The translations under genes were made by a program, and so were the position numbers. A stretch of DNA of 39,553 nucleotides from a virus (taxonomy: Duplodnaviria; Caudoviricetes). Where the stretch lies: the IMG/VR virus record IMGVR_UViG_3300048578_000200, positions 1 to 39,553 of that record; one strand, given 5' to 3'. Positions 1 to 24,735 of this stretch are shown piece by piece. The notes below the pieces were generated by a model. It made no database searches, was not told the DNA's origin, and worked only from the letters and a program-made list of their open reading frames with translations. Each line of letters opens with the position of its first letter. The stretch's first letter is position 1.

Positions 1-823
1 GGTTGATCTGACCCTCGAAGAGGAAGCGGCGTACCTCCGTCTCTGCCATCAGATGTATCGCCGGCACGGTCCGATCCCGAACTCCGAACGCCTGCTGTGC
101 TCGTTGTGGCGATGCCATCAGAACAAGGCCCGCCCGCTTCTCCGGCGCCTCATCGACGCAGGCAAGATTCATCTGACACCCGACGGACATCTCACCAACA
201 CGCGGGTGACACACGAGCTAGACGATCGGGAGACGGTGTCGATACAGCGTGCACACGCCGGGCATATGGGAGGGGTACATAGCGGAGACGTTCGCCGTAA
301 CTCATTGAATGAAAACGGCACAGCCGAAGCAATTGCTTCAACCGATCGAAGCAGAGAAGAGGAGAGTAGAGAAGAGGAGAGTAGAGAAGAGGAGAAGAGA
401 GAAGAGGAGAAGAGAGAAGAGCAGGAGTCTTTCTCGCTTCGCTCGGAAGCTCCCTCCGACCCGCCGGCGGCGGCCCCGTCCAAGCCGAAGGCAAAACGCG
501 CTACCCGGCTGCCGGCTGACTGGAAGCCATCCGAGGCCGATTACGCGGCCGCGGAGGCGGAAGGCTTCACCCGGCAATACGCAGATCGCATCGCCAGCAA
601 TTTCCGAGATTACTGGCTCGCCCGATCAGGAGCGGGCGCAGCCAAGCTCGATTGGCCGGCCACCTGGAGAATCTGGGTGCGCCGGGAAGCCGCACGGCAA
701 CCTCCCTACCACGGAGCAAATCATGACGGACCAAGACCGCAACGCCGTAGTGCCACTGAAGGCTTCGATGCCCTCAGGGACGCAATCGATCGCGGATTCG
801 ATCTTCCGCCTCGACCAGTGTGA
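1..823 (+). CDS. Phage replication initiator, DUF1376/YdaU-like (5'-truncated by window)
   Basis: Frame is open from the window start (VDLTLEEEAAYLRLCHQMY, DUF1376-like). C-terminal RLPADWKP...FRDYW...KLDWPATWRIWVRR is typical of phage replication proteins. Internal tandem repeats. Confidence 0.75.
   Translation, partial: VDLTLEEEAAYLRLCHQMYRRHGPIPNSERLLCSLWRCHQNKARPLLRRLIDAGKIHLTPDGHLTNTRVTHELDDRETVSIQRAHAGHMGGVHSGDVRRNSLNENGTAEAIASTDRSREEESREEESREEEKREEEKREEQESFSLRSEAPSDPPAAAPSKPKAKRATRLPADWKPSEADYAAAEAEGFTRQYADRIASNFRDYWLARSGAGAAKLDWPATWRIWVRREAARQPPYHGANHDGPRPQRRSATEGFDALRDAIDRGFDLPPRPV
353..427 (+). repeat. Five 15-bp tandem repeats AGAGAAGAGGAGA(GT/AG) inside the initiator gene
   Basis: Units start at 353, 368, 383, 398 and 413 (last degenerate) and encode REEES/REEEK. 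A palindrome GAAGCAATTGCTTC lies at 326-339. Confidence 0.9.
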
Positions 824-1295
824 CATCGTCGACCAGAAGGCGGGTTTGCCAGCCGTGGCCGAGTGCGAATCGATCGTCGCCTATCTGTCGCAGGATCGGC
901 CGGCGGGTCTGGCCGCAGCGGAGAGAGCTGGCCGAGCAATCACTGGCCCGCATCCGCGCAACGACGTCGAAGATCCGGTGATGTACACGACCACGATCGC
1001 GGCGATCATGTCGGAATATCCGCAGGCGGTCCTGGATCGGATCGCCGATCCCCGCACCGGGATCATCCGCAGAATCAGGTTCTTGCCGCGGCCGGCGGAG
1101 ATCGCCGAGTTCTGTGACGAGGAAGTGAAGCGGCGCCGCAACCTGATCGCCAAGGCTCAGCACGTCATCAGGATGCACGAGCAGCGACGGGTCGCCGCCG
1201 ATAACGAAACACACCCAGCCATGACCGAGGAAGAGAAGGCCGCTCGCCGCGAGCAGGTTTCCCGTCTCCTCGGCCGCTTCGCCAAATCCCACTGA
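723..1295 (+). CDS. Putative helicase loader / replication accessory protein
   Basis: ATG 6 nt after the 14-mer at 703-716; overlaps the end of the initiator; FLPRPAEIAEFC resembles loader-type motifs. Confidence 0.5.
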   Translation: MTDQDRNAVVPLKASMPSGTQSIADSIFRLDQCDIVDQKAGLPAVAECESIVAYLSQDRPAGLAAAERAGRAITGPHPRNDVEDPVMYTTTIAAIMSEYPQAVLDRIADPRTGIIRRIRFLPRPAEIAEFCDEEVKRRRNLIAKAQHVIRMHEQRRVAADNETHPAMTEEEKAARREQVSRLLGRFAKSH

Positions 1296-1311
1296 AAAAG
1301 GGCTCCCTACC

Positions 1312-1800
1312 ATGGCATCAATGAACAAGGTCATGCTGATCGGCAATCTCGGCCAAGACCCCGAAATCAAGGCCCTCAACGACGGCACCAAGGTCGCCAA
1401 TCTTTCGATCGCGACTTCCGAGCGGTGGCGCGACAAGCAGACCGGCGATCAGAGGGAAAAGACCGAGTGGCACCGGATCAACATCTGGGGCGACGGTCTT
1501 GTCGGCGTCATCGAGAAGTATCTCGCCAAGGGCGATCAGGTGATGGTCGTCGGCAAGCTCCAGACCCGCTCCTGGGAGGATCAGGACGGCAAGAAGCACT
1601 ACGCCACCGAGGTCATCGTTTCCGGCTTCAAAGCCGAGCTGCAAATCCTGCGCTGCAAGGCCTGGGATCGCCACGGACGCGAGGACCACGGTGGGGGTGA
1701 TGGAGGAGACTATGGCGACGGGAACGCCACCGGTGGCCGCGGCCGCGAGCCTGGTGCGACCGGAAAGCGCGAGGAGTTCGACGACGACATTCCGTTCTGA
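1312..1800 (+). CDS. ssb: Single-stranded DNA-binding protein
   Basis: MNKVMLIGNLGQDPE...TEWHRI...GKLQTRSW; Gly-rich linker; C-terminal DDDIPF. Confidence 0.97.
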   Translation: MASMNKVMLIGNLGQDPEIKALNDGTKVANLSIATSERWRDKQTGDQREKTEWHRINIWGDGLVGVIEKYLAKGDQVMVVGKLQTRSWEDQDGKKHYATEVIVSGFKAELQILRCKAWDRHGREDHGGGDGGDYGDGNATGGRGREPGATGKREEFDDDIPF

Positions 1801-1829
1801 ATCACCACAACACAAGAAGGGGAAACCCC

Positions 1830-2147
1830 ATGTCTATCGAACCCACCATCGACACGAGCGACGAGCTCATTGACTTCGTCGGCCGGGCTCAGCCCGGCGA
1901 CGTGTGCGTCTATCACCGCGGGCATCTCGCCTACGATGCCAGCCTTGAAGGCGCGCAGCACGACGGTGACCATCGGTCGTGCCTCACCAAGCTGTCGGGG
2001 ATTGCTTATGCGCTCTACCGCAACGGCAGGGTCTTGCTGGTGCAGCGCCGGGACGGCGAAGAATTTGCTTACTTGGCTGTCCGCAGCTCTCGTTCCGTCG
2101 CGCTCGCCGGCGCGCCGATGATTCATCAAGTTCGGGAGGCTGCATGA
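1830..2147 (+). CDS. Hypothetical phage protein
   Basis: RBS GAAGGGG; its stop overlaps the next start (ATGA). Confidence 0.65.
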   Translation: MSIEPTIDTSDELIDFVGRAQPGDVCVYHRGHLAYDASLEGAQHDGDHRSCLTKLSGIAYALYRNGRVLLVQRRDGEEFAYLAVRSSRSVALAGAPMIHQVREAA

Positions 2148-2776
2148 TGCAGGTCGATCATCGCGAGGTGATGCGAGATGCCTTGTTGGATGCAGCTTCC
2201 ACGATCGTCGCACGCGAACAAGAACCAAAGCCTCCGGCGCTGGTGATGGCTGTTCTGACGGAGGCCATGGAGACATTGCGCCGGATGCCAGATCGGGAGG
2301 CTGCTTGGCTCTTTGGCCAGCGCTCGTTGTGGCCTGACATCGTGCACGACTATCAGGAGCGGCTTGAGGCCTATCAGGAGGATCTCAAGCGGTGGATGTC
2401 CGGCGAGGATTTGGCCGGAGAATTGCGGCGGCGGATGCCAGCCGGCCAAGCTCAGATCAAGCGGATGTATGTAGTGTTCGACGATTTTCCGCTGTTGATG
2501 GTTGGGCGGGAGAAGCGTCGGGACTACCGCATCCTATGTGGGCTCGCGAGTGGAAAGGGGTTCCGACGTGTTGCGTTGGAAGCAAGGTGCAGCAAGAGCG
2601 CCATCGAAAACTTCCGCGATCTGCAACTGACTGCGATCGCCAATAAGCTCCGCTATGTGATGCCGACAGAGTCTGATCTCGATCAGATGAAAAATCGACT
2701 TGAACTTAAGCGTCGAGCCGTCGAGGACGGTTACAAAGAAAAGTCTGGCAATATAGACGTTTTGGACGTAGCCTAA
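2144..2776 (+). CDS. DUF6362-like putative transcriptional regulator
   Basis: GGAGG RBS; EAMETLRRMPD...SLWPDIV motif; HTH-like C-terminal segment; sits at the end of the replication operon. Confidence 0.5.
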   Translation: MMQVDHREVMRDALLDAASTIVAREQEPKPPALVMAVLTEAMETLRRMPDREAAWLFGQRSLWPDIVHDYQERLEAYQEDLKRWMSGEDLAGELRRRMPAGQAQIKRMYVVFDDFPLLMVGREKRRDYRILCGLASGKGFRRVALEARCSKSAIENFRDLQLTAIANKLRYVMPTESDLDQMKNRLELKRRAVEDGYKEKSGNIDVLDVA

Positions 2777-2797
2777 AGCTAAGTTTGGACGAATCTG

Positions 2798-2828
2798 GAC
2801 GGGCCCCACGCGGGCCCGTTTCTATTTC
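2798..2828 (+). terminator. Probable intrinsic terminator
   Basis: GACGGGCCC-loop-GGGCCCGTT followed by TCTATTT. Confidence 0.5.
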
Positions 2829-3191
2829 AGGAAACACCATGTCATCGGAATGCGTCCGGCCGCCGCCGTTCGGCGGGCGGCTCGCTCGACCTATGGTTGA
2901 TCCCAATGAAACCATGAGCGCGCGAAGAATCCTTGCCTGCCGGTGTGCACGGAAGCGTCCGACCAAAGTCCAGTCGCTGAGTTTTTCCCGCAAACATCTG
3001 ATTGAGCACGTATATTGCGCAGCCTGCGGTGATAGGTGGTGGCGGCTCTGGCAATAATGGCTTGCGATTCAACCCGATTGCAGGCATCTTTCGTCCAACC
3101 TGGGACGCTCCACCGCAAGGTGCCTTGGCCATTTTCTGTGGTAGGGAGATCGAGCAGGGGCGGCGCTGGCAACGGTGCCGCCCCATTCGTT

Positions 3192-4022
3192 TCAGACGGA
3201 CGCTATCGTCATGGCTTCGAGCCTGGCGATTCTCTTTTCCAACGGCGGATGGGTGTCGAACAGTTCGGCGATCCGGCCGTGGAAGGGTTGCACGATCCAG
3301 AGCGTCGCGAGGGTGAGTTGGCTGGGCGCGACGGCGTCGTGGGCCGGGACACCGGCGGCAAGGCGCCGCAGGGCCTCCGCAAGCCACTCCGGATGCCGGC
3401 ATAGCTCGGCGCCGCGGCGGTCGGCGGCGTATTCGCGGCCTCGGCCTACGGCGAGGTGCAGCAGGATGGCCCCCAGGCCGGCGACGAGGCCGAACAGGAT
3501 GAGCGTGAACCCGCCTTCCTTCCGGTTGAGGAACCCGATCAGGGTCAGAAAGCCGCCCAGTATGGCGATGGCGCCGGCGATGGTCGCCGCCACTGTCATC
3601 GTCATGGTGTCGCGGGCTCGGATGTGAGCGATCTCGTGCGCGGCGATCGCGGTGACCTGATTCCAGGTCAATTCCGAGATGGCGCCGCGCGTGAACACCA
3701 GGATGGCGTGACCAGGGCCGCGGCCGGCCGCAAAGGCGTTCCGGTGCCGGCTCTCGACGACATAGATCGGCGGCGCCGGGATGCCGGCGATCGTCGACAG
3801 ATCGGCGACTGCCTTTTCGAGTCGGTCGTGGCCGGGCTCGAGCGGTCGCGCGTCGAAGGTGCCGATCGCGATCTCCGCGCCGCGCCACCATGTGTTGGCG
3901 TTGAAGAGGACGGCGAGGATGAGGGCAGCCACCCCACCGGTGGTGTCGCCGAATAGGAAGCCCAGGCCGACCAGGGCGGCGGTGAGGAGCGACAACAGGA
4001 ATGTGGTTTTGAGGAAATTCAT
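3192..4022 (-). CDS. htpX: HtpX-like M48 family membrane zinc metalloprotease
   Basis: N-terminal hydrophobic segments, NAFAAGRGP, HEIAH (HExxH), REYAADR, THPPLEKRIARL. Confidence 0.9.
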   Translation of the reverse strand: MNFLKTTFLLSLLTAALVGLGFLFGDTTGGVAALILAVLFNANTWWRGAEIAIGTFDARPLEPGHDRLEKAVADLSTIAGIPAPPIYVVESRHRNAFAAGRGPGHAILVFTRGAISELTWNQVTAIAAHEIAHIRARDTMTMTVAATIAGAIAILGGFLTLIGFLNRKEGGFTLILFGLVAGLGAILLHLAVGRGREYAADRRGAELCRHPEWLAEALRRLAAGVPAHDAVAPSQLTLATLWIVQPFHGRIAELFDTHPPLEKRIARLEAMTIASV

Positions 4023-4207
4023 GATCGGTCTCCTGCCGGCTCAGCGTTGACTCGGAAGCACCCACAAGCAAAACGGTGCAACTCGTTCAAGGTGCCCGGT
4101 TCGAGATAGACGACATGGTCGCCGTCTTCGTGCGGTGCGCGCAGGCAAATCTGATAGCCGTCGAACGACGCGTAGAGGCCGTCTCCGAGATAGGTTCCGT
4201 TCGGCAT
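4019..4207 (-). CDS. Small hypothetical phage protein
   Basis: GGAGG RBS; YLGDGLYASFDGYQICL; stop overlaps the htpX start. Confidence 0.65.
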   Translation of the reverse strand: MPNGTYLGDGLYASFDGYQICLRAPHEDGDHVVYLEPGTLNELHRFACGCFRVNAEPAGDRS

Positions 4208-4209
4208 GA

Positions 4210-4686
4210 TCAACCTCCGGTGTTGATGCGCTCGCACAAGGAATCGATTTCGTCTGGGGTCAGCGCTTCGACCGTGCCGGCGACGTTCGCGATTGAATCC
4301 TCGCCATCGTATTTGGCATCGCTCTGGTACCCGATCCGCTGCCAGTAGCGCAGCGCGGCCAGGATGGTGGCGAGCTCACACTCGTCGGCGGCCAGGACGA
4401 TCGGCTTGTTTTCCCGGTAGGCGGCGATGGCATTGGGCAGATAGACGCTATCGACCGTCGAATAGACGGTCTCTTCTTCGGTTGTCGCGTCGGTGACGCA
4501 CTCGACTTCCTCGGTTCCGACGATCGGTGCCGCGCCGTCGTCGGCGATCTGGAAGTCGACATCGTCATCGTCGTTCAAGATCATGTCTTCGGCGGTCTCC
4601 GTAGCCTCTTCCGCCGTCTCGGCTTCGACGTCGAAATAGGCGACCAGATCGGTCAGCGCGGTGGCGCGGACGCGGAATGTCTTCAT
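4210..4686 (-). CDS. Acidic hypothetical protein
   Basis: AGGAG RBS before ATG 4686; packed in the operon. Confidence 0.65.
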   Translation of the reverse strand: MKTFRVRATALTDLVAYFDVEAETAEEATETAEDMILNDDDDVDFQIADDGAAPIVGTEEVECVTDATTEEETVYSTVDSVYLPNAIAAYRENKPIVLAADECELATILAALRYWQRIGYQSDAKYDGEDSIANVAGTVEALTPDEIDSLCERINTGG

Positions 4687-4928
4687 GGTGTGGCTCCTTG
4701 GGAAGCGGAGGCGGCGATCGCACGGGTGCGCTCGATCTTGCGTGCGTATTCCCTGCGGCGGTTGACGTGGCGCAGCGCGCCGGCGGCTGACGTGATCGCC
4801 AACCTGACGCGCTTGGCGGATTGCTTGGCATTGGCGCGCTTGAGCAAATCGCGGGCGCGACGGAGACAGTCGAGCGCCTTTCTGACGTCCTCGACGTCGC
4901 TGATGAGAGCTGGTTTTAGGCTGCGCAT
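4683..4928 (-). CDS. Small basic hypothetical protein
   Basis: Downstream of the motif variant at 4945-4958; overlaps the next start. Confidence 0.55.
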   Translation of the reverse strand: MRSLKPALISDVEDVRKALDCLRRARDLLKRANAKQSAKRVRLAITSAAGALRHVNRRREYARKIERTRAIAASASQGATP

Positions 4929-4992
4929 GGCGCATCTCGCTTGCTGCTGTGGTAGGGAGGATGGGCGCCGGCGGACCGGCGCCCGGTGAGTG

Positions 4993-5415
4993 TCAGGCGG
5001 CTTCGGCCACCATCGGCAGTGGATCGTTCGGCTCGGGCGGCGGTTCGATCACCGGCGGTTCCCCGGCCAGATCGCTGGCGTCATGGTCGGTCGCGGCGTT
5101 CGGCACTTCGACACGCGACAGTTCGCAGCACGGCCAAACGACATCGGCATGGTCGGTCTGCACCCAGGCCTTTTCCTCGATGCGGGCGACGACGGTGCCG
5201 ACGGTGGCGCTGAAGTGGCGGACGGTATCGCCGGGCTGGAAATTCACATAGGCGATGCTCTCGAAATCTTCGAGCCGGACCATGAGCGGCTGGTAGTGGC
5301 CCTTCAGGTCGACCCAGACGAACTTATCTTCGGCCGGATCGAAGTCGTCGCGCACGGTCGCGCGCATGTTCAGGACATCGCCCTTCGCGGGCACGTAGTT
5401 GACGGGGAGAGGCAT
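4993..5415 (-). CDS. Hypothetical protein
   Basis: Motif variant at 5426-5439 plus AAGGA RBS. Confidence 0.7.
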   Translation of the reverse strand: MPLPVNYVPAKGDVLNMRATVRDDFDPAEDKFVWVDLKGHYQPLMVRLEDFESIAYVNFQPGDTVRHFSATVGTVVARIEEKAWVQTDHADVVWPCCELSRVEVPNAATDHDASDLAGEPPVIEPPPEPNDPLPMVAEAA

Positions 5416-5448
5416 GGTTGATTCCTTCCGTGGTAGGGATGGGCAGGC

Positions 5449-7470
5449 TTAGAAATCCAAGGTCACCAGCACGGTGTTCACGCCAGTGCCGGATTCCTTG
5501 AATGTGTCGGGCGGCAGCTCTTCAATGACCCCGCCGTGATTTTCGACGAACCGCCGGAAATCGCAGGTTTCACGATCGCTGCGGAACGTCACGCCGGCGG
5601 ACATGACCGCCACCAGCCGGCCGCCCGGCTTAACGAACTTGGTGGCGTGCATGACGTGGCGGACGTCGTCGCCCTTGGCGAAAGGGGGATTCATCAGCAC
5701 CTTGTCGAAGAGTCCCAAGGTCGGCTGAAGCTCCAGGAAGTCAGCGCACATGACTGTGCCGGCAGATGGTTTTAGTCCGCCCGCCAGGGTCGGGTTGATC
5801 TCCACGGCGACGGTTTCGGCCGGTGGTGGCTCGCTGTGGTTGTGGCAGGCTCCGATCGCGGCGAGGATAGCGCCTGTCCCGGCTTCCGGCTCGAGCACGC
5901 GGTCGCCGGGCCGGATGTCGGCGATCTCGACCATGCGTTTGGCGAGTTCGGCCGGTGTCGGGAAGAGTTGGGGCACAGCCACCACCTTGACCCCGTTCTT
6001 GAGCGCGTCCCGCATGTCGTCGAAGGTGGTCCGCTGCGGCGCGGTGCGCACAGGGCGCGGCGTTTCCGGCGAGGGCGGGGGTGGCGGCAGATCGCAATCA
6101 GGCTTCTCCGGCTCCGGCTTCGGCGGGGCCACCCGCTTCATGTCGGTGATGAACACTCGCTGCTTCTGCCAGCAGTTGCCGGGGGCGGGCATCTGGCGGG
6201 CGCGGTGCTTGCCGACGGTCTCGGTCGCCGCGATCACCGCAACATAGGGGAAATCCGACCACTTGTTCCGACCGTTCCATTCGGCCTCGGTCATCTCGCG
6301 GAAGCCCTCGCCCGGGTAGTTGCAGAGCGGCGGCAGTGCGGTTGCTTTCTTGACCTTGGCGGCCTGCTCGGCCGTCGGCGGCCGATAGTCCTGGATCTGC
6401 TCGACACCGTATTTCCAGGTGCTCTGCCAGTGAACGATTTTCGGAGCGGTGGTGGTGACGCTGTTGACCGCGCCGTTCGACTTGTTGACCCGGAGGATGA
6501 CCAGCCAGCCGTCGCGGCCAACGAGCACCTGGCCGCCCGGCTTGAGATCGAAGCGGGACGCCATGGCGTTGTCGCCCGTCGTTCCGAGCTGTTCGTTGAG
6601 CATCGCGCGTTCATAGGCCAGCCGGTTGTCATAGTGAGCAATCCAGCGGGCTTTGTAGGCGATCGTGCGCGGGAAGACGGTCTTGGCGTACTCGACGATC
6701 TCGGCGATCGTCCGTGAGGCGTACAGGGTCGGATAGTCGCCTTGCACCGCGTCAAGAGCGGTCGGCCCATGGTCCCAGTCGACGTGGTCGCCTTCCTTCT
6801 TGGGCAGTGTCAGGTAGCACATGCCCGCGATCCGCAGCGCGACCTGCTTCTGCAATTCAAGGTCCGTCTCGTTGCCGCACTCGGTCCAATAGTGAAGCCA
6901 CATCTCGGACTCCTGCTTCACCTTGTCGGCCTTGCGGCGGTCGGATTCGAGCGTCTTGATCCGCCGGTGGCGGACGGCGGGGAGCTCCTTGTATTTGGCG
7001 GCGCTGATCGCGCCGGCGGCGCGGCCGGTCCAATAGCCGGCCTGCTCCCACATCTTCACGGCCTTGCGCATGCCGTTCTCGATGCGCTCGGCGTCCTTGC
7101 GGGCGCGTTTCTCGGAGTGGTGTCCGACCAGGATGGGCTGTCCCATGGGGATATTGTCGGCGATCGCGTCGACCGCGTTGCGAGCGCTTTCGGCGTCGGC
7201 CTTGCGGTGTTCGCTGTAGCTCTCGAACCGTTCGGCGCGTTCCTCGGCACGCTCGACGAGGCTCTTGTCTTCATCCTCGATCTCGCCAGCGAGTTCAGTC
7301 AGAAGATCAGCGCGGCCCGGCGCCCAGACGGCATAGAAGAGTTGCTGTTTCGGTGCCCAGGAAAACCCAGCCGCCTTCACGCGGGCATAGGTCTCGGCAT
7401 CGAGGCGGGAGAAAGCGTAAAGCCGGAGCTTGTCGTCGTCGGGTGAGTAGGTGGCGGTGTAGCTGGCCAT
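5449..7470 (-). CDS. DUF3560 domain fused to an amino-methyltransferase (probable N6-adenine DNA MTase)
   Basis: IPMGQPILVGHHSEKRARKD (DUF3560 signature); QLFPTP; VLEPEAGTGAI (motif I); VLMNPPF (motif IV); FKESGTGVNT. Confidence 0.85.
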   Translation of the reverse strand: MASYTATYSPDDDKLRLYAFSRLDAETYARVKAAGFSWAPKQQLFYAVWAPGRADLLTELAGEIEDEDKSLVERAEERAERFESYSEHRKADAESARNAVDAIADNIPMGQPILVGHHSEKRARKDAERIENGMRKAVKMWEQAGYWTGRAAGAISAAKYKELPAVRHRRIKTLESDRRKADKVKQESEMWLHYWTECGNETDLELQKQVALRIAGMCYLTLPKKEGDHVDWDHGPTALDAVQGDYPTLYASRTIAEIVEYAKTVFPRTIAYKARWIAHYDNRLAYERAMLNEQLGTTGDNAMASRFDLKPGGQVLVGRDGWLVILRVNKSNGAVNSVTTTAPKIVHWQSTWKYGVEQIQDYRPPTAEQAAKVKKATALPPLCNYPGEGFREMTEAEWNGRNKWSDFPYVAVIAATETVGKHRARQMPAPGNCWQKQRVFITDMKRVAPPKPEPEKPDCDLPPPPPSPETPRPVRTAPQRTTFDDMRDALKNGVKVVAVPQLFPTPAELAKRMVEIADIRPGDRVLEPEAGTGAILAAIGACHNHSEPPPAETVAVEINPTLAGGLKPSAGTVMCADFLELQPTLGLFDKVLMNPPFAKGDDVRHVMHATKFVKPGGRLVAVMSAGVTFRSDRETCDFRRFVENHGGVIEELPPDTFKESGTGVNTVLVTLDF

Positions 7471-7472
7471 GG

Positions 7473-7844
7473 TCATGCCTCCACCGCGAGGGATCGGCAT
7501 CCGACCACGCCGAGCTGGGATTCAAGGAAGTTGAGCACCTCAATGGCGACTGGCTCGCTGCTTCCATAGCAATCGTCAGCGATATCGGTGGCGATGTCCT
7601 CGGTGACGTCGCGCGACCAGCACTCGTGAGCGTTGAAAGCGACGATGCGGTCGATGCCCTCGACCTCGCGGCTCTTGATTGCTGCGATCAGAGCGTCCTT
7701 GGTTTCGTAGACGTCCTGTCCGGCGAGGTTCCGGCCTTGGAGCCGATAGCTCCAGTAAGCGACGTAGTGGGTGACGTCGGGCGTGTTCGGATTGAGTAGA
7801 ATAGGGGTGGTGGTGGCCAGTGTGCCACGATGAAGCACTGTCAT
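7473..7844 (-). CDS. Hypothetical protein
   Basis: ATG 7 nt after the exact 14-mer at 7852-7865. Confidence 0.7.
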   Translation of the reverse strand: MTVLHRGTLATTTPILLNPNTPDVTHYVAYWSYRLQGRNLAGQDVYETKDALIAAIKSREVEGIDRIVAFNAHECWSRDVTEDIATDIADDCYGSSEPVAIEVLNFLESQLGVVGCRSLAVEA

Positions 7845-7880
7845 CGATCGTCTCCGTGGTAGGGAGAATTGCCTTCAATG

Positions 7881-7914
7881 TCAATAACTTAGTGTATAGC
7901 GCCGCGAAATGCAA
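7881..7914 (-). promoter_or_regulatory. Sigma70-like early promoter
   Basis: TTGCAT-17-TAAGTT(ATTGA) on the minus strand. Confidence 0.7.
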
Positions 7915-7918
7915 GAAG

Positions 7919-7952
7919 AAAGCGCCGCTTTACTAAATAAAGTCGGCGCTTT
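7919..7952 (-). terminator. Probable terminator after the DUF488 gene
   Basis: AAAGCGCCG...CGGCGCTTT inverted repeat followed by CTTCTT on the minus strand. Confidence 0.6.
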
Positions 7953-8611: not shown

Positions 8612-8612
8612 G

Positions 8613-9539: not shown

Positions 9540-9571
9540 CACTTGGCTCCGTGGTAGGGAGAACACGGAGA

Positions 9572-12569: not shown

Positions 12570-12606
12570 GATGTAGCTCCGTGGTAGGGATGATCGGGGG
12601 AATAGG

Positions 12607-13356: not shown

Positions 13357-13390
13357 CGCAAAGCTCCGTGGTAGGGAAAAGCCTTAACGA

Positions 13391-14103: not shown

Positions 14104-14128
14104 TGTTTCTCTCCGTGGTAGGGAGGTT

Positions 14129-14617: not shown

Positions 14618-14641
14618 CGATCGGCTCCGTGGTAGGGAGGT

Positions 14642-15184: not shown

Positions 15185-15216
15185 TTAAGTCTCCGTGGTA
15201 GGGAGCGGCTTTAATA

Positions 15217-15629: not shown

Positions 15630-15653
15630 GACGTGTCTCCGTGGTAGGGAGTC

Positions 15654-15934: not shown

Positions 15935-15960
15935 GGATGAATCCTCGTGGTAGGGAGGGG

Positions 15961-16548: not shown

Positions 16549-16580
16549 CTCTTAGCTCCGTGGTAGGGAGGAACAAGAGA

Positions 16581-17332: not shown

Positions 17333-17365
17333 TTTCAGCTCCGTGGTAGGGAAAGCTCTGAAACA

Positions 17366-17413
17366 TCAATAACTTATCACAACTTCGCCGCATTTCAAGT
17401 GTTAAGTCCTTGA
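17366..17413 (-). promoter_or_regulatory. Sigma70-like early promoter flanked by inverted 11-mers
   Basis: TTGAAA-16-TAAGTT; TCAATAACTTA at 17366-17376 and TAAGTCCTTGA at 17403-17413. Confidence 0.75.
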
Positions 17414-17419
17414 ACGCGC

Positions 17420-17449
17420 AAAGAAAAAGCCCGCCGGAGAGGGCGGGCT
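17420..17449 (-). terminator. Intrinsic terminator
   Basis: AGCCCGCC-loop-GGCGGGCT followed by TTTTCTTT on the minus strand. Confidence 0.8.
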
Positions 17450-17473
17450 CAAGCAGAAAAGGACGGGAGGCTG

Positions 17474-17743
17474 TCAGTGCATTCTTATCAAGAAGCCGAG
17501 AATCGTCGTCACGGCCGTACAGCCGACGAGCAGCATTCCGCCGATTTGCAGTCTGGTCACCAAGCCTTGCCGATCGATCTTGGCGTCGAGCAGTTGCACG
17601 GCGGTGGACAGATCGGACTTGGTCACCAGCTCGGTCATGATGAACTCGCGCGCGGCTTCGGCGTGAGCCTCGGCCTGCTTTTGGGGGATGCCGGCATCCC
17701 GGAGGCGCTTAGCATAGCCCAACGTGTCGAAAGCGAAAGCCAT
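17474..17743 (-). CDS. DUF1640/CCDC90-like coiled-coil protein with C-terminal TM
   Basis: FDTLGYAKRLRDAGIPQKQAEA...LVTKSDL plus hydrophobic tail. Confidence 0.8.
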   Translation of the reverse strand: MAFAFDTLGYAKRLRDAGIPQKQAEAHAEAAREFIMTELVTKSDLSTAVQLLDAKIDRQGLVTRLQIGGMLLVGCTAVTTILGFLIRMH

Positions 17744-17755
17744 CTGCCCCTCCCT

Positions 17756-18052
17756 CTATGCGGCCGCGCGGGCGTGCCAGTCGTCGTTCATCCAGACGAC
17801 GCTGCCGCCCGTCTGCGCGTGGCACAGGGACATGGTGGTGGTGCCGAACTCTCGCGCCTCGATCCCGATGGTGCAGCCGCGATTGCGGCGGGCGATCGCC
17901 AAGGCGGCATCGCCGGCCTTCATCTCGACGGAAAAGGCCGTCTCGATCTCGGCGGTCTTGAACAGCCTGACCACCTCGGTGGCGTGCGGTCCGATGAACT
18001 TGGCAAGCCAAAGTCTGCGGCCGCGGCGCAGGACGATACGGTTCTCGGTCAT
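17756..18052 (-). CDS. Hypothetical protein
   Basis: Motif variant at 18059-18072. Confidence 0.6.
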   Translation of the reverse strand: MTENRIVLRRGRRLWLAKFIGPHATEVVRLFKTAEIETAFSVEMKAGDAALAIARRNRGCTIGIEAREFGTTTMSLCHAQTGGSVVWMNDDWHARAAA

Positions 18053-18073
18053 TCTCATCTCCGTGGTAGGGGC

Positions 18074-18127
18074 GGTGGATCGTCCACCTTGAGGCGCCGG
18101 GCCCGCCGGCGCCTGGGGGTAGACCAA
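18074..18127 (-). repeat. Conserved intergenic hairpin element, copy B
   Basis: GTCTACC..AGGCGCCGG CGGGC CCGGCGCCT..GGTGGAC GAT CCACC on the minus strand. Confidence 0.75.
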
Positions 18128-18451
18128 TCAGGACCGGGATGGCTCGGTCTGGGAGACGTGGAACACAGTGGTGGTCTTCGGCCTCCGGAACGACGAGACC
18201 GACTGCTCGCCGGCCTCGGCCGGATCGCGCTTGGTCATCTCGATCCAGGTGACGACCTTGACGCCGTGCTCGCCCTTCTTGACCGAGCGGCCGAGTGCCT
18301 TCCAGGCGTTGAACGTCAGGACGTTCTCTCGCGGCTTGATGTCGTCGGTCGGGATGCCGCGGGCGGCAAAGCCCTCGAAGATCGCCGGGAAGTTGGCGAA
18401 CGAATTGCCGGTGGTGGCGCGGGTGAGCGCCTCGGCTGCGTACATGGACAT
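18128..18451 (-). CDS. Stand-alone ArdC-like N-terminal ssDNA-binding domain
   Basis: TFNAWKALGRSVKKGEHG...VFHVSQTE; no C-terminal metalloprotease domain. Confidence 0.75.
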   Translation of the reverse strand: MSMYAAEALTRATTGNSFANFPAIFEGFAARGIPTDDIKPRENVLTFNAWKALGRSVKKGEHGVKVVTWIEMTKRDPAEAGEQSVSSFRRPKTTTVFHVSQTEPSRS

Positions 18452-18475
18452 CGAAAGCTCCGTGGTAGGGAGAAG

Positions 18476-18526
18476 TGGTGGTCATCCACCTCGGAGGGTC
18501 GGTCCTGCCGGCCCTCGAAGGTAGAT
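18476..18526 (-). repeat. Conserved intergenic hairpin element, copy C
   Basis: ATCTACCT..GAGGGCCGG CAGGA CCGACCCTC..AGGTGGAT GA CCACC on the minus strand. Confidence 0.7.
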
Positions 18527-18726
18527 CAACCGACGCGGATGATGGTCACCTGGAAGCGTGCACCGATCGGGTCGGTGACCTCGACGACCAGTCCGGCGTC
18601 GTCGGTAAGGATGCCGGCCTCTTCGTAGGTCGCCACCTCGGCCGGCGAGCCGAACTGGTCTTCGCACTGGCGAATGATGGCGTCTGACAGGAGTTGCTGA
18701 AATTGGGTGGTTTGAAGGTCAGTCAT
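18526..18726 (-). CDS. Small hypothetical phage protein, first gene of the leftward region
   Basis: AGGGGG RBS; TYEEAGILTDDAGLVV...FQVTII. Confidence 0.7.
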   Translation of the reverse strand: MTDLQTTQFQQLLSDAIIRQCEDQFGSPAEVATYEEAGILTDDAGLVVEVTDPIGARFQVTIIRVG

Positions 18727-18746
18727 TGATAAATCCCCCTTTGATT

Positions 18747-18794
18747 TCAATAACTTAGCACCTATTCACTCTTAGGCAATAGGTAAGTGATTGA
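18747..18794 (-). promoter_or_regulatory. Sigma70-like early promoter flanked by inverted 11-mers
   Basis: TTGCCT-16-TAAGTT; TCAATAACTTA at 18747-18757 and TAAGTGATTGA at 18784-18794. Confidence 0.75.
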
Positions 18795-19065
18795 TTTCTC
18801 GAAGAATTTTCCGCCCGACGCTTTCGACGCTCACGCGCACGCGCGCGAGGCTCTTAAGCGCGGCGCGTTGGTTGCCATCGCAAATGGCGAGCTGGCGAAG
18901 GAGGGGGCTCTAAACACCCGAGAATTGGCGCTGCGCGTTGTGCGCGCGAAGGGCTTGGACGAATGCGATAAAGTGCTCCGTCACGGTATTATGGCGCAAG
19001 CGCCACAAACGCGCCGATTGACCCTCCCCATCTATTTCCCAGCCGTCTGGCAAAGACGGTATTGA
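18787..19065 (+). pseudogene. Probable gene remnant
   Basis: TRELALRVVRAKGLDECDKVLR resembles part of an alphaproteobacterial mobile-element protein; no good RBS. Confidence 0.35.
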
Positions 19066-19118
19066 CTAACCCGTCGCAAGGTCATGCAATGATCCCCATA
19101 TAATTCGGGGGGTTGGTC

Positions 19119-19286
19119 ATGATTGAGAATTGCGGCACAGAAGCGAGGACACCATGGCAAGCAGCAAGAGAACCGAGGCCGACTCCTCCGCCACCTCCGC
19201 CGCCTCCCAGGCCGCCGACGCCTCCCAGGCCGCCGACGCCGGGCGATGGGACGAGGGGCAATCCTCCCCCGATCAGACCCAGATGA
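19119..19286 (+). CDS. 55-aa proline-rich peptide
   Basis: MIENCGTEARTPWQAAREPRPTPPPPPPPPRPPTPPRPPTPGDGTRGNPPPIRPR; its TGA overlaps ATG 19283. Confidence 0.45.
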   Translation: MIENCGTEARTPWQAAREPRPTPPPPPPPPRPPTPPRPPTPGDGTRGNPPPIRPR

Positions 19287-19819
19287 ATGAGATTCAACGG
19301 CTTCGATTTGAGGCCACGATCAACGGGCGTTATCACACGGCACGACAGGGCTGGTACGAGTCCATGCACCGATGGTCCATGTTTGTGGTGGTCATCGGTG
19401 GCACTACTGCCGTAGCTGAGGCTGTGGGGACCGGGCGATCCTATTCATGGCTGATAGCTCTCGTCCCGACAATAGCGGGGACAATCGATCTTGTTTTCGA
19501 CCTTGCCGGCAAGTCGGCGCAACATGCGCGCCTCCAAGAACGTAGCTATGATATTGTTTCAGATATCGAACAGTCGACGGATAGCCCTGAAATTATTTGC
19601 AAGCGTGGTTGGGCGGCAATAGCGCGCATTTGTGCCCAAGAAACGAAAACGATGCGTGTCGTGCATGCGTTGGCTTACAACGACACCAAGGAGGGCTCGG
19701 AGAACGATGTTCAGGACGATTTGCTTATGTTCCCGTGGTGGGCGCGCTTGACGAGGCATATGTGGTCATATGACGGTTTGCGCATTCAGCGGGCGAAAGA
19801 CGCGCGGGCGACAACTTAA
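19283..19819 (+). CDS. SLATT-like two-TM protein (alternative start 19154)
   Basis: RYHTARQGWYESMHRW, two hydrophobic segments, then KSAQHARLQERSYDI, a SLATT-type layout. Confidence 0.6.
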   Translation: MNEIQRLRFEATINGRYHTARQGWYESMHRWSMFVVVIGGTTAVAEAVGTGRSYSWLIALVPTIAGTIDLVFDLAGKSAQHARLQERSYDIVSDIEQSTDSPEIICKRGWAAIARICAQETKTMRVVHALAYNDTKEGSENDVQDDLLMFPWWARLTRHMWSYDGLRIQRAKDARATT

Positions 19820-20212
19820 ATATCCTCCAGTGTGACCGCCTCGCATCCGATTGCGACTAGTTCCTCTGCACCGAGATTTTGACCGGTTCAGCTTTCGGCA
19901 GGTTTCTCAACTGGCGTCAGGTTCCTCGCGAGGAGAAGCCACGCTTGCGCGGCAGCTATCAGCTTCCGCTTGTGGCGAGGATCACTCTCGGCTTGCTGTA
20001 GTTTTTGCGCCGCGCGTTTCTGGCACTCGTCTGTACTGTACATTGGACCTTCGCACATGACCCACTCCCGAGAAGAATTTGCGGCGCTTTAATTGAACGC
20101 ATTTCAACACCGCGCTGTGCAATTTGGGACACCGCCCCGGAATCAGGACAACGCCCCGCGCGGCCCTCAGGGAACCGATCGGAAAGGGGCTCAACCAGTC
20201 AAAATCACTGTG

Positions 20213-20353
20213 TCAAGGAACTAGGGCGGCGAGGAAAAAATGAGCCGGCACCGTCGCCCGCGAAAGCTTGCTGGCGATGCTGGCCTTGGTCTCGTTGAAC
20301 CCGTGTTCCTTCATCCGTTCGGCTAAATCTTCGTAGGTCAAGGATGCTCGTTT
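20213..20353 (-). pseudogene. DUF6471-like HTH gene fragment
   Basis: Minus-strand translation KRASLTYEDLAERMKEHGFNETKASIASKLSRATVPAHFFLAALVP*; lacks the N-terminus. Confidence 0.6.
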
Positions 20354-20536
20354 ACCCGGCCCAATTTCGGCAGACGCCGGGGGGCGAGCGTCTTCCCCAC
20401 GCTTTCGGTGGCGGGCGTAGGCTATCGGGTGGGGTGGTTGGTAACGGGACGAAATTTACACAACCGGCGAGCCTTTACGGGGCGGAATTTTCTTCCACCG
20501 GATCTCTCACCGGAGAAGGGATTCCGACCGCTGAAC

Positions 20537-20863
20537 TCAGCCGGGCGGGCTCGCAGACTTGGGAGGCTTGAGGCGCCTATGGCCCTTGAGTTCGACTTGT
20601 GGCGGCGGTGGATTGGGAGATTCGTAGAATTGCCGCGCTTCCAACACCAGAAGCCGCTTTTGCAGGCTTTCGATCTGTCGCATCAGCTCGGGAACGGCGC
20701 TGTTTGAGTTTGCTCCCTCGAGCCGAGCGACACGCTCAGAAACTCGCGCAATGTCGCCACTCAGATCCTTCACGTCAGTGGCGATCTTGGCCACACGCTC
20801 GAACAGAGTGGCAAACTTGACGTGCGCGTCAGATAGCTTGCTGAACACGTCACTGATGCCCAT
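20537..20863 (-). CDS. Coiled-coil hypothetical protein
   Basis: GGAG RBS; overlaps the upstream gene. Confidence 0.55.
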   Translation of the reverse strand: MGISDVFSKLSDAHVKFATLFERVAKIATDVKDLSGDIARVSERVARLEGANSNSAVPELMRQIESLQKRLLVLEARQFYESPNPPPPQVELKGHRRLKPPKSASPPG

Positions 20864-21275
20864 TTTTCGGCTCCAGTACCTGGGCAATCCTCGCTCGGTT
20901 GCGGGCAATCGCAGCGCTTGCGTCGTCAATCTTCGCAACGGCTTTATCGGCGGCAGTAATAGCTGTGTCGATTGACTGGAGTACGTGCCTTTGGCGCGCC
21001 GCATTAGCAAGCGCCGCAGCTATACCTTGGGAGCGTTGGGCTTCCTTTTTCCCGATGACACCAGTGTAGTTAACTGAATACGATTCCGGCAGCGGCAACG
21101 AAGCCCAACTCTTCAGGGTCTGAAGCTCCTGTTCGGTTAACGTAATATCAAGCATAGGGAACGGCTTTCTCTTTCCCTTCTCGGAGGTCTGCACAGGGCG
21201 GAGCGCCGCCGGTCCTAGCCTCGTCATGCCGGTTTTAGATTTGCCGCTTCTTCCACCTGTTGTTGATTGCTTCAT
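20850..21275 (-). CDS. Hypothetical protein
   Basis: GGAGGGG RBS; lower-GC region. Confidence 0.55.
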   Translation of the reverse strand: MKQSTTGGRSGKSKTGMTRLGPAALRPVQTSEKGKRKPFPMLDITLTEQELQTLKSWASLPLPESYSVNYTGVIGKKEAQRSQGIAAALANAARQRHVLQSIDTAITAADKAVAKIDDASAAIARNRARIAQVLEPKNGHQ

Positions 21276-21451
21276 GTGACTGACCCCTCCAAAGAGCGTG
21301 CTGGGAAGATATAGCATGGCAGTACCGCATACACTCAAGCGGTGAGCTGCATTTTCACGTGGATCGCTATATATCGCTGGTTGCATCATTTGGCCGAGTG
21401 CCCGATTTCCCGGGGCTGATACCGACCGCAAGTAGAAACAAGGACAATGTC

Positions 21452-21970
21452 ATGGGGGATACAAGCACAGCGCTGGCGGCGATGGCCGCGCGCCGGCCGT
21501 CGAAAGAGCGCATCATCGAGACGCTGCGGGAGAAGGCGGGGATTGTCGCCGCCGCGGCGCGAACGCTCGGAGTGCATCGCTCGACGCTCTACAATTGGAT
21601 GGAGGAGGACAAGAGCGGCGACATTGCCGCGGCCACGAAAGACATCCGGGAGGAAGTCACCGATCTCGCGGAAGGCAAGCTCTTCGAGAACATCGAGAAG
21701 GGCCGATCCGAAGACATCCGCTTCTATCTGCGGTGCTTCGGCGGCCCCCGCGGCTACAAGGAGGTGACACGCATCGAAGGTCGAGACGGTGGCCCGATCG
21801 AGATGGAACACACATTCGATCCGCGGCCGGAGTCCTTGCGCAATGCCAACCTGGAAAATCTGAGCTGGGAGGATCTGCAAGACTATCGGCGACTGCGCCA
21901 GAAAATGAACGTGCCGCTGGTCGAGGGACCGGCGACGGAGGTGAAAGCCGAACCGGCGCCGGCCAAGTGA
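21452..21970 (+). CDS. terS: Terminase small subunit (HTH)
   Basis: GIVAAAARTLGVHRSTLYNW HTH, DLAEGKLFENI, IRFYL...RGY, GRDGGPIE. Confidence 0.75.
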   Translation: MGDTSTALAAMAARRPSKERIIETLREKAGIVAAAARTLGVHRSTLYNWMEEDKSGDIAAATKDIREEVTDLAEGKLFENIEKGRSEDIRFYLRCFGGPRGYKEVTRIEGRDGGPIEMEHTFDPRPESLRNANLENLSWEDLQDYRRLRQKMNVPLVEGPATEVKAEPAPAK

Positions 21971-22079
21971 GTCTAGGGGCAACTCGCCTCAATTAGGGAC
22001 AAATCGGCCGGCGGACTTACGCGCGCATGCGCGAGGCCGCATCGTGGCGGGACATCGATTCCCTACCACGGAGCCCACA

Positions 22080-22616
22080 ATGTTTTCCAAAGAGACGATC
22101 CAAAAGCTCTCCCAGGCCGCGATTGACAATGTCGACGTTATGATCAGCATCCTGGGCAACGCGAAGGAGCTCAGCACCGCCGAAAAGCTGGCGCTGCTCA
22201 CCGAGCTGACCGCGTTAAAGTCGGCGATGGGCGAGTACCAGCATGCCAAGACCGACGGACAGGAGCCGGCCGAGGCCGTTTCGGCGCCGGTGAGCGGGCA
22301 GACCAGCGAGGACGTCGTCGACGCGCAGGACTCGCGCCTTCTGTTCGATCGCGATGACGTGTATGACGCCATCGACTCGGAACGCGACTACCAGGAGCAA
22401 GGCAAGGGCAACTCCAAGCGCGATCCCGATCTTCCGCCGCCCAGTCTCGGCGACTTCATCTGCATCATGGAGGAATGCCTCTCCGATGCCCGCACGGCCT
22501 ATTACCGGCCGCGGCAGTACTGGGGGCACGGCCATTCGCCGCTCGACTACATCCGCAAGACCTGCGCCACCGGCGTCCAGTGCATGGAGCAGCACGGAGC
22601 ACCGGCCCGCATGTAA
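22080..22616 (+). CDS. Hypothetical two-domain protein
   Basis: 14-mer at 22060-22073. N-terminus paralogous to 23137-23361; C-terminal helical domain VYDAIDSERDYQ...IRKTCATGVQCMEQHG. Confidence 0.75.
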   Translation: MFSKETIQKLSQAAIDNVDVMISILGNAKELSTAEKLALLTELTALKSAMGEYQHAKTDGQEPAEAVSAPVSGQTSEDVVDAQDSRLLFDRDDVYDAIDSERDYQEQGKGNSKRDPDLPPPSLGDFICIMEECLSDARTAYYRPRQYWGHGHSPLDYIRKTCATGVQCMEQHGAPARM

Positions 22617-22678
22617 TCGCGGACTTCACCTGTTGGGCGCTGGCGTGAGCTGGCGCCCTTTCAGGAAGGGGAAAGTCG

Positions 22679-22960
22679 GTGGCCGAGACTTCGTGCTTGA
22701 AGCGTGACGCATCGATCTTGCTGCAATTGCGTGAGTTGGCGCGGGCGCAGCCCGACCAGCTTGTGCGCAATTCGCTGCAACGGACCGCTGACGATCTCCA
22801 GAGCGCAATTGCGCAGTTCGGCTCACTGCCGACGCCCGACAATCTCGCAACGGTCAACGGCCTGTATGCGCGGGCTGTGTTCTTGCTCGGCATGCACAAC
22901 ACGCCGCGGACCGGCGGGAATGGCGCAGGCTTGCGTGAGGGCGCCCGGCTGGCCGCATGA
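22679..22960 (+). CDS. Hypothetical protein
   Basis: GTG start after GAAGGGG. Confidence 0.55.
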   Translation: MAETSCLKRDASILLQLRELARAQPDQLVRNSLQRTADDLQSAIAQFGSLPTPDNLATVNGLYARAVFLLGMHNTPRTGGNGAGLREGARLAA

Positions 22961-22967
22961 GGTTCAC

Positions 22968-23111
22968 ATGATCGAGATCGTCGGCCTCTGCTTCTGTTCG
23001 TACATGTCCTTGTGGTCGTTGGCTCGCTCATTGCGCGCCGGCGATGGCGTCGCATTCCTGTCAGCCCCGCTGTGGGCTCTCGCTGCATCCCAGTTCTGTA
23101 CCTGCATCTGA
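22968..23111 (+). CDS. Small hydrophobic protein
   Basis: GAGG RBS; 47 aa with two hydrophobic stretches. Confidence 0.45.
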   Translation: MIEIVGLCFCSYMSLWSLARSLRAGDGVAFLSAPLWALAASQFCTCI

Positions 23112-23136
23112 AGCCTCCCTACCACGGAGAAATGAC

Positions 23137-23361
23137 ATGCCTTTCTCGAAAGAAACGACGAGCGCCATGGTGAAGGCGCAGCTCGATGCCTTCGACAAGA
23201 TGGTCGAAGTGATCAAGGCGGATACCCAGTCCACCGAAGTCGAGCGCTCGGCCATGACAGCCGAGGTGCTGGACGCCAAGACGCACATCGCGGCCGAAGA
23301 AGACCACATCAATGAGGAGCTGCCGGCGGTCGTCGCGGCGCATGCCATGTCCGGAGGCTGA
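23137..23361 (+). CDS. Hypothetical protein, paralog of the 22080 N-terminus
   Basis: 14-mer at 23116-23129; begins MPFSKETT. Confidence 0.7.
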   Translation: MPFSKETTSAMVKAQLDAFDKMVEVIKADTQSTEVERSAMTAEVLDAKTHIAAEEDHINEELPAVVAAHAMSGG

Positions 23362-23364
23362 TCG

Positions 23365-23607
23365 ATGGCGCTCCTGCAATTCGTCGGTGGCAGCTATGAC
23401 GGCCTCCAGATGGAGGCCGCCGCCGACACAGACTTCGTGCGGCTTCCTCAGCGGTGCGAAGACTCGGTGTTCGACATCCAGGACGTACCCGGACCCGAAG
23501 CCGATGCGATCATGGTCACCGAGCTCTATGAGCGGCAGGAGGTCGGCGGCCGGATGTGCCTCGTCCTGGCGGCGAGCAGCCAGGTTCCGGACCAGCGGCC
23601 TGGATGA
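23365..23607 (+). CDS. Hypothetical protein
   Basis: GGAGG RBS; FVGGSYDG. Confidence 0.65.
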   Translation: MALLQFVGGSYDGLQMEAAADTDFVRLPQRCEDSVFDIQDVPGPEADAIMVTELYERQEVGGRMCLVLAASSQVPDQRPG

Positions 23608-23617
23608 GGATGGCGGC

Positions 23618-23824
23618 ATGAACGTCCTGCGCTGGTGCACCCATTTTCAGATCAAGGGCATTGACGGATCATGGTCCAAGCCAATCAGCGTCTACAATCT
23701 CTCGCTGCCGACACTGGTCGGCAAATCCACCATGCTTCGCTGGATACGATCACCCCGCGGTGCCAGGGGCTATCGCCGTCATGTTCGCCGGCAGAAGCCG
23801 GCGCAGCGCTGGAACATGCCATGA
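23618..23824 (+). CDS. Hypothetical protein
   Basis: GAGGA RBS; ATGA overlap with the next gene. Confidence 0.5.
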   Translation: MNVLRWCTHFQIKGIDGSWSKPISVYNLSLPTLVGKSTMLRWIRSPRGARGYRRHVRRQKPAQRWNMP

Positions 23825-24006
23825 CCCGCAAACAAGTCGCCGACATTCTCCGCCAGATGGAGCGGGTGCGCGAGCTTGCCCATGAGGTGGAGAGCAAGAA
23901 GAGGGCACGTCAGTTCCTCACCGAATATCGGCGCATGTGGAAGGCCATCAGCCCCTACGTGACCGGAAAGAAGCCCTACAGCGAGCCGAAGGCGAAGGCG
24001 GCATGA
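23821..24006 (+). CDS. Hypothetical protein
   Basis: ATGA overlaps at both ends. Confidence 0.6.
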   Translation: MTRKQVADILRQMERVRELAHEVESKKRARQFLTEYRRMWKAISPYVTGKKPYSEPKAKAA

Positions 24007-24266
24007 GCCGAGAGTTCGATAACCGAGCCGTGGAGTATTACGAGCTTCGGCGCGTCACCATCCCGCCGTTGCAGCCGGGCGAGTCGCGGCTCACCACCGC
24101 GGCGGTCATCACGTGCAGTCTTTGCGGCCGCACCATCGACGGCATGGGCGGACCTGGCTGTGGTCCGATCTGCATTCCCTGTGGCGATCTCGTCAAGCGC
24201 GGGCAAGCGCGTGGCGCAGTCGTCTGGACTGGCGAACACCTCCCTGCCACGGAAAAGAGCAAATGA
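24003..24266 (+). CDS. Putative zinc-finger protein
   Basis: CSLC...CIPC. Confidence 0.6.
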   Translation: MSREFDNRAVEYYELRRVTIPPLQPGESRLTTAAVITCSLCGRTIDGMGGPGCGPICIPCGDLVKRGQARGAVVWTGEHLPATEKSK

Positions 24267-24712
24267 CGATCTCGCCCGAGGTGCACATTCTCACTAGTCG
24301 CGAACTCGAGGAACTGTCTACCCGGTGGTTCACGCGCGGCGTCGCGACCGGCAAGTCCGAGGCGATGGCCACCGACGACGACTCAATCGTCAGCTATGAA
24401 CATCACGGCCACAACGTCGCTGTCCGGTCCGATCTGAAGGGAAAGCACCGGGAGCATTGCCTCTGCTATCGCTGCTCAAAGTTCGTCGTGACGGTTACGA
24501 GCGCGCTCGGCGCATGCCCGTACTGTGGCTCGCCCGGCCAATGGCGCGAGAAGCGTCCGAATGGGAATGACGGATGCGCCAACGGGCACGTCTACGCCAG
24601 CGCTGAGGCCGTCCAGAATTGCCCGATCGCCGTCGAACTGCATTCGTTCTGCGTCAAGCACGGCATGACCACGCCTGTTTACGAGTGCCCTGCGTTCATC
24701 GAGAAACCCTGA
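24263..24712 (+). CDS. Cys/His-rich putative zinc-binding protein
   Basis: Motif variant at 24241-24254; CLCYRC, CPYC, CANGH, CPIA, ECPAF. Confidence 0.7.
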   Translation: MTISPEVHILTSRELEELSTRWFTRGVATGKSEAMATDDDSIVSYEHHGHNVAVRSDLKGKHREHCLCYRCSKFVVTVTSALGACPYCGSPGQWREKRPNGNDGCANGHVYASAEAVQNCPIAVELHSFCVKHGMTTPVYECPAFIEKP

Positions 24713-24735
24713 CCATCCCTACCACGGAGACCACC

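Follow-up and report, generated by a model that had tools for sequence, protein, structure and literature searches.

The window analysed here, that is, the whole 39.6-kb virus record IMGVR_UViG_3300048578_000200, represents a tailed phage with baseplate genes, in which a short repeated element, an 8-base tag (CCUACCAC), sits just 5' of the Shine-Dalgarno sequence (SD) at 21 non-structural genes. The gene order runs from a replication block (+ strand) through a long early and accessory block (- strand, 3-19 kb) and a group of small genes between terS and terL to the virion genes. A close cultured phage was not found, the best capsid match being 51.9%. The relatives of the phage point to an alphaproteobacterial host, as do a permuted (two-piece) alphaproteobacterial transfer-messenger RNA (29151-29534 +, with the tag ANDNVGMIEMRLAA) and a tRNA-Met (29932-30008 +), both located between the portal gene and the scaffold gene.

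The tagged genes include ssb, a ParB-like gene, a DUF2786 gene, an ArdC-N-like gene and many unknowns. The original prediction, made from the sequence alone, described 15 exact and 7 variant copies of a start-associated element heading about 22 genes, each exact copy ending 6-7 nt before an ATG. All 15 exact copies are indeed present with this spacing, as are the variants at 1304, 3134, 4945, 5426, 15943, 18059 and 24241 (Table 1). When up to three mismatches were allowed, 24 matches were obtained in the window, as compared to a mean of 3.01 in shuffled sequences, with 0 of 100 shuffles reaching 24; the remaining two matches (26527/26528) are inside terL and look like chance, and from terL onward no true tag copy occurs, as had been predicted. 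The copy at 703 lies, also as predicted, within the coding sequence of the initiator (open frame 2-823, DUF1376/DnaT-like) and heads the open reading frame (ORF) 723-1295. The number of headed genes stands for 21 copies but not for the one at 3134, which has no credible gene behind it, so that the count becomes 21 start-associated tags and one copy that is best read on the opposite strand. Thus, 21/22 copies are oriented, start-associated and overlapping with the SD. The base before the core is a C in 19/19 window targets. Many tags are located 4-10 nt past a stop codon without a promoter; promoter-like sites precede four tags by pattern and one by a stricter scan.

Early promoter-like sites on the - strand (window ~7870-7915, 13385-13425, 15205-15245, 17355-17400 and 18730-18775) share the word TAAG(T/A)T-ATTGA around the -10 box, which also precedes tags in many relatives and which we take to resemble an IHF site. 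A longer upstream module with two hairpins, including a GGTGGA-n-CCACC stem, is common to three tags (15650-15715, 18070-18125 and 18470-18525, - strand).

Table 1 Positions of the predicted small RNA gene, its elements and the tagged gene starts in the window
Feature	Position	Strand	Remark
Predicted small RNA gene, ~95 nt	~3097..3192	+	5' end placed from the promoter
Predicted sigma-70-like promoter TTGCGA-17-CATCTT	3062..3090	+	47 nt upstream of seed
Seed segment GUGGUAGG	3131..3150	+	pyrimidine arm (anti-SD), GTGGTA at 3138-3143, GGGAG arm; variant 3134 on other strand
Predicted intrinsic terminator, 12-bp stem and U-rich tail	3157..3192	+	-26.7 kcal/mol; first-listed terminator-like site (3157-3184) of bases 1-20000
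Hairpin and T-rich tail closing replication operon	2801..2827	+	upstream of RNA gene; read from sequence
Tag	703..716	+	before ORF 723-1295, inside initiator coding sequence
Variant tag (C>T in core, G·U-compatible)	1304..1317	+	before ssb
Variant tag	4945..4958	-	before ORF 4928-4683
Variant tag	5426..5439	-	before ORF 5415-4993
Tag	7852..7865	-	before ORF 7844-7473; just 3' of promoter-like TTGCAT-17-TAAGTT
Tag	9547..9560	-	before ParB-like gene 9539-8613
Tag	12577..12590	-	before ORF 12569-12177
Tag	13364..13377	-	before DUF2786/DUF7168 gene; downstream of TTGACA-16-TAAGAT
Tag	14111..14124	-	before ORF 14103-13456
Tag	14625..14638	-	before ORF 14617-14129
Tag	15191..15204	-	before ORF 15184-14642
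Tag	15637..15650	-	before short ORF starting 15629
Variant tag	15943..15956	-	before ORF 15934-15710
Tag	16556..16569	-	before ORF 16548-16345
Tag	17339..17352	-	before ORF 17332-16658
Variant tag	18059..18072	-	before ORF 18052-17756
Tag	18458..18471	-	before ArdC-N-like anti-restriction gene
Tag	22060..22073	+	before ORF 22080-22616, between terS and terL
Tag	23116..23129	+	before ORF 23137-23361
Variant tag (A>G in core, G·U-compatible)	24241..24254	+	before ORF 24263-24712, inside upstream ORF
Tag	24716..24729	+	before ORF 24736-24954

Tagged relatives were gathered by pattern scans of viral contigs and by further sequence searches. These related records, many of them proviruses, carry 5-22 tag copies each, and one is a prophage in Mesorhizobium sp. 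WSM3862 (G008); protein identity to the window is only 35-68%, in a few proteins. Relatives collected on the basis of terL (11 loci, 27-34% identity) have 0-2 cores apiece. Another 92 loci were obtained with DUF488-like and ParB-like queries, after which de novo counting of start-associated words revealed that some of them use other words. The invariant core across the relatives is CCTACCAC; the preceding bases differ, and the distance between core and SD ranges from 0 to ~15 nt. This constancy, together with the rarity of the core in hosts, agrees with the earlier suggestion that the 5' part of the element is selected for something beyond ribosome binding. The expectation that the motif is rarer before host genes was borne out as well: 12/21 CCCTACCAC copies of G008 fall in the prophage, and among the 30/69 core matches examined elsewhere in this chromosome a convincing start site was found in none, with two flagged by a loose pattern. 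In other genomes of the order, one copy of the 12-mer was detected in 24/400 and more than one in 0. In a scan bearing on the possible pairing with 23S rRNA considered below, which was made for the one-base variant CCTCCCACGGAG..ATG, no contig with two matches was encountered among the best 80 of 120 loci, with 41/64 parts covered.

Two records deserve mention with respect to the range of the tag. A Rhodopila metagenome-assembled contig (L135, bases 120-175) has two tandem tags before a gene that by eye resembles the window's DUF2786 gene, which extends the system to another alphaproteobacterial family. In G428 (18400-28460) the tags are followed by GAGGTAA instead of GGAG; this record has few proteins in common with the others and possibly belongs to a different host group.

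The copy at 3134 differs from all others in the window. The possibility of a gene behind it was rejected, since the 96-codon frame at this position lacks an SD and a homolog and has a non-coding codon score (-0.235, with a G+C content at third codon positions of 0.58; the corresponding ranges in 15 tagged genes are +0.06 to +0.33 and 0.71-0.92). On the opposite strand, the same copy forms the seed of a predicted small RNA gene with its own putative promoter and terminator (Table 1). In the related record G006, the -35 box, spacing and -10 shape of the promoter are kept amid otherwise diverged spacer DNA, the conserved islands between the two records being the -35 box, the seed and the terminator. 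The predicted RNA has a fold z-score of -2.89 and no Rfam family match, including c4/P4 CI and GcvB, and a search at the family level with the seed pattern matched 7/251 genomes, G008 among them. In a blind ranking of the 46 terminator-upstream segments of the window, the candidate came first, with complementarity to 17 candidate starts, as compared to 7 for the next segment. The hairpin at 2801..2827 has a similar counterpart in G006 and does not appear in the list of 22 terminator-like sites. In the early regions of G001-G005 and G421, early promoters coincide in part with a dyad, GTAACC-N5-GGTTAC, that is probably a repressor operator, and a degenerate copy of it adjoins the proposed RNA promoter, which suggests repressor-linked control of the RNA.

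Most well-covered records likewise possess a copy that is preceded directly by an A-tract and a GC-rich hairpin and has no usable start behind it, which on the opposite strand gives the order pyrimidine arm, GUGGUA, purine arm, hairpin and U-rich tail. For comparison of these copies, 11 lineages were used (the window and 10 others; G003 and G004 were dropped as near-copies of G002, and G418 is without the region). An opposite-strand terminator (<= -17 kcal/mol plus U-rich tail) accompanies 9/11 proposed RNA copies and 4/102 start-associated copies (Fisher p = 6e-9), and a promoter-like pattern 10-70 nt upstream is present in 7/11, as compared to 150/4400 random windows (3.4%). At the proposed RNA copies, the more stable fold is that of the antisense strand, and not of the sense strand, in 11/11 cases. 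In the seed hairpin, 93.9% of the cells are paired, 4/6 pairs are changed on both sides (compensatory) and the closing U·G is invariant. The base after the core is an A in 11/11 RNA copies, which in the RNA becomes a U that can pair with both A and G, and a G in 67/102 targets. A second copy of seed plus terminator was noticed on the early strand of several records (G002 16329, G004 19431, G001 47498, G003 17569 and G686 41670). It lacks the loop-displaying hairpin, is located at the 3' end of the early transcript in G001-G004, and is possibly a second, 3'-UTR (untranslated region)-derived RNA.

Where the tag is altered, the seed is altered with it. Each of six relatives with changed tags (whole records) has a copy with seed and terminator-like hairpin that bears the matching change: UGCCAC with seed GUGGCA in G685, AGCCAC with GUGGCU in G686, CUGCCA with UGGCAG in G687, CUACCA followed by A with UGGUAG in G688, UUCCAC and UUCCGC with GUGGAA, which pairs with both through G·U, in G689, and UUCCG with CGGAA in G690. 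Both core variants of the window are G·U-compatible, as is the A/G split in G689. The flanks covary as well, since in G411 and G412, where the seed continues with GGAA, C is no longer the invariant base ahead of the core. The own seed is the best partner of the own targets in 7/10 records. In the window, G·U pairs carry the predicted duplex across the SD. Its mean energy is -31.5 kcal/mol with the 21 tagged starts and -17.0 with 40 untagged ones, and opening costs 7.7 kcal/mol. In three relatives with other start-associated words, G691 (L588), L602 and G692 (L613), an antisense unit was looked for and not detected; these words are ACCAAAC with an upstream GCTGCAAAC hairpin, AAACTTG and CCCACGA.

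We consider it likely that one small RNA of the phage pairs with tag and SD and thereby represses about 20 early genes. An RNA of ~95 nt would be transcribed from the promoter at 3062-3090, pairing would begin at its GUGGUA loop and, by means of G·U pairs, spread across the SD, and the duplex would block ribosome loading, so that the 21 tagged genes may be silenced together. Pairing at the site where the 30S subunit binds is an established way in which small RNAs repress, and with a duplex at this position repression is the likely outcome. The timing is the least certain part: in view of the many proviruses among the carriers and of the sigma-70-like promoter, we prefer that early genes are kept quiet in the lysogen, with shut-off in mid-infection as the alternative. 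The phage-wide translational regulon that was originally proposed is supported, with the modification that the factor is probably a small RNA from variant 3134 and not a protein.

A number of points weigh against this explanation. Seed and tag are one DNA word, so a matched change is equally expected of concerted repeat evolution, and there is some circularity in the figures on duplexes and cross-pairing; what argues for an RNA is the terminator, the promoter and the strand polarity. The covariation score of the seed hairpin was reached by 0/500 shuffles, a statistic that is inflated because the 11 lineages are related, and the minimum-energy fold predicted for the window is an alternative local fold without the 6-nt loop. 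Antisense-strand folding also occurs at many targets (33/102 at <= -6 kcal/mol). The promoter pattern, which was defined with three cases already in view, holds in only 2/7 held-out candidates, U tails are weak in G412, G419 and G690, and a sense-strand SD plus start is also possible at the candidate copy in G006, G686 and G688. In a blind test, the proposed RNA came first in 8/23 records, with the clearest lead in the window, and a seed-bearing terminator was among the top two in 11/23. Finally, no candidate RNA was found in G428, G413, G414, G417, G691, G692, G694, L580, L602 and L638, which are mostly fragments or records with few tags, although G691 is ~96% complete.

Other explanations can be envisaged for the same observations. 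If the tag were an operator or enhancer for a host or phage RNA-binding protein, the copy before the terminator would be one more repeat. The fixed place of the tag in the initiation region combined with variable SD spacing fits such a reader, and small, remote RNA-binding proteins might escape BLASTP, yet in this search none of the phage proteins was shared by all 18 tagged records compared, terL being the most widespread. The absence of the tag from host starts, the six other tag words each with a matched seed-plus-terminator copy, and the unexplained opposite-strand terminator, promoter and G·U polarity further make a protein reader unlikely. Alternatively, the same small RNA could activate its targets by pairing with the CUCC arm and opening a hairpin that hides the SD. 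The self-hairpin that was noted before can be formed in 10/15 exact copies, but it is weak (-2.9 kcal/mol), which makes activation less likely, and it cannot be formed in most targets of the relatives. Moreover, the 5' pyrimidine arm of the RNA is conserved, pairing carries on over the SD and the duplex falls within the ribosome footprint, so that we regard activation as quite unlikely.

The main role of the tag might also be that of an intrinsic C/A-rich enhancer of translation, whether or not an RNA controls it as well, and this is compatible with repression by the small RNA. It is a G-free, unstructured word adjoining the SD, and GcvB targets double as enhancers in the study cited here (PMC3879156). 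An enhancer would be expected before host genes, where the examined matches gave no convincing case, and it would need neither exactness nor lineage specificity; the core also lacks the ACA triplet. As the main function it is very unlikely. The other earlier proposal, that early genes are swappable cassettes with the tag as their crossover site, we judge highly improbable. At tags in G001-G005, the upstream DNA can stay the same where the gene differs, or differ where the gene stays the same, and 36/161 alignment ends are near tags, as compared to 7.2 expected under a uniform null. However, alignment ends are as frequent near tagged (16/57) as near untagged starts (31/112; Fisher p = 1.0, for pairs that are non-independent and an untagged set that includes false starts), so that the apparent 5-fold excess is a gene-boundary effect. 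Nor would a crossover site explain the strand of the tags, their adjacency to the SD or the antisense copy. Pairing of the tag with host 23S rRNA, based on the exact complement of the core (GTGGTAGG) that occurs once in the 23S gene of Mesorhizobium G008, is hardly credible, since any 8-mer has a ~7% chance of a match in ~4.5 kb of rRNA, the flanks do not lengthen it, the segment is presumably a paired, protein-bound part of the 50S subunit, and relatives use other tags matched to phage-encoded seeds. None of the enhancer, protein operator and 23S readings accounts for the antisense unit.

Two further features of the window were noticed. A DAM-like plus GNAT-like gene and a ParB-like partner (9638-11696 +) form a possible DNA-modification module that is kept in many tagged phages, is itself untagged and is transcribed against the early block. 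Inside the initiator gene (350-425 +), a purine-rich tandem repeat encoding SREEE/KREEE repeats may be an iteron region.

The c4 and P4 CI RNAs each act on one antirepressor or early operon, and the sar and OOP RNAs are encoded opposite their target. Like c4, an antisense RNA of phages P1/P7 (Rfam RF01695; PMC2864571), and P4 CI RNA, the predicted RNA would be phage-encoded and act in trans by base pairing on phage transcripts of a temperate phage; unlike these, it has no Rfam match and its site is on ~20 separate gene starts. P22 sar, lambda OOP and aQ are described as small antisense RNAs that lower phage gene expression and affect the choice between lysis and lysogeny (PMC12197685). Each of these acts on one gene, and the phage antisense RNAs treated in that review act mostly on one gene or operon. 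With GcvB of enteric bacteria, which according to the cited work pairs immediately upstream of the SD in many mRNAs (PMC3879156), the RNA would share the principle of one RNA with many targets and of a G/U-rich seed on a C/A-rich site. GcvB is, in contrast, host-encoded, unrelated in sequence and has loose targets, whereas the window tag is near-exact and without ACA, and its seed is hairpin-displayed and lineage-specific. The RNA is predicted to work like GcvB and is built like phage immunity antisense RNAs, but it is a member of neither group.

The system parallels the start-associated sequences (SAS/ESAS) of cluster K mycobacteriophages, described as an asymmetric repeat with 11-19 copies per genome at translation starts, which includes the SD and is nearly absent from hosts (PMC3203893). 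Both are oriented, start-associated, overlapping with the SD and rare in host chromosomes, and single opposite-strand SAS sites were noted in the same paper. The host phylum is different, a candidate reader is identified for the window tag, and the 13-bp consensus given there is not matched by the tag, as the original prediction held. The PeSL elements of T4-type phages, reported as promoter plus terminator units that precede non-essential early genes in a variable region and mediate shuffling (PMC2839356), are likewise repeated ahead of early genes; the system differs from these in that the tags are not promoter-plus-terminator units and that breakpoints are not enriched beyond gene boundaries.

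A more far-reaching possibility, which we put forward tentatively and regard as doubtful, is RNA-coded immunity, in which the prophage RNA would silence ~20 early genes of the prophage itself and of any incoming phage that shares the tag. The seed and tag variants, at least seven, would then be orthogonal specificity groups, comparable to the immunity types of repressors, except that the code would be a loop of 5-6 bases. If true, RNA immunity would account for phage start-associated sequences in a general and testable way, and it would provide a natural, re-addressable off-switch for many genes. No account of the tag or the RNA was found in the open-access literature searched. What reads the start-associated repeats of phages has been an open question ever since those of cluster K were described (PMC3203893), and a concrete candidate with coordinates is proposed here. 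Since natural specificity variants and a culturable host genus (the Mesorhizobium prophage) are available as well, a test by compensatory mutation is direct. If one RNA addresses a hard-wired tag on ~20 genes of its own phage, control would extend to the scale of a regulon, in a layer that protein-centred annotation misses.

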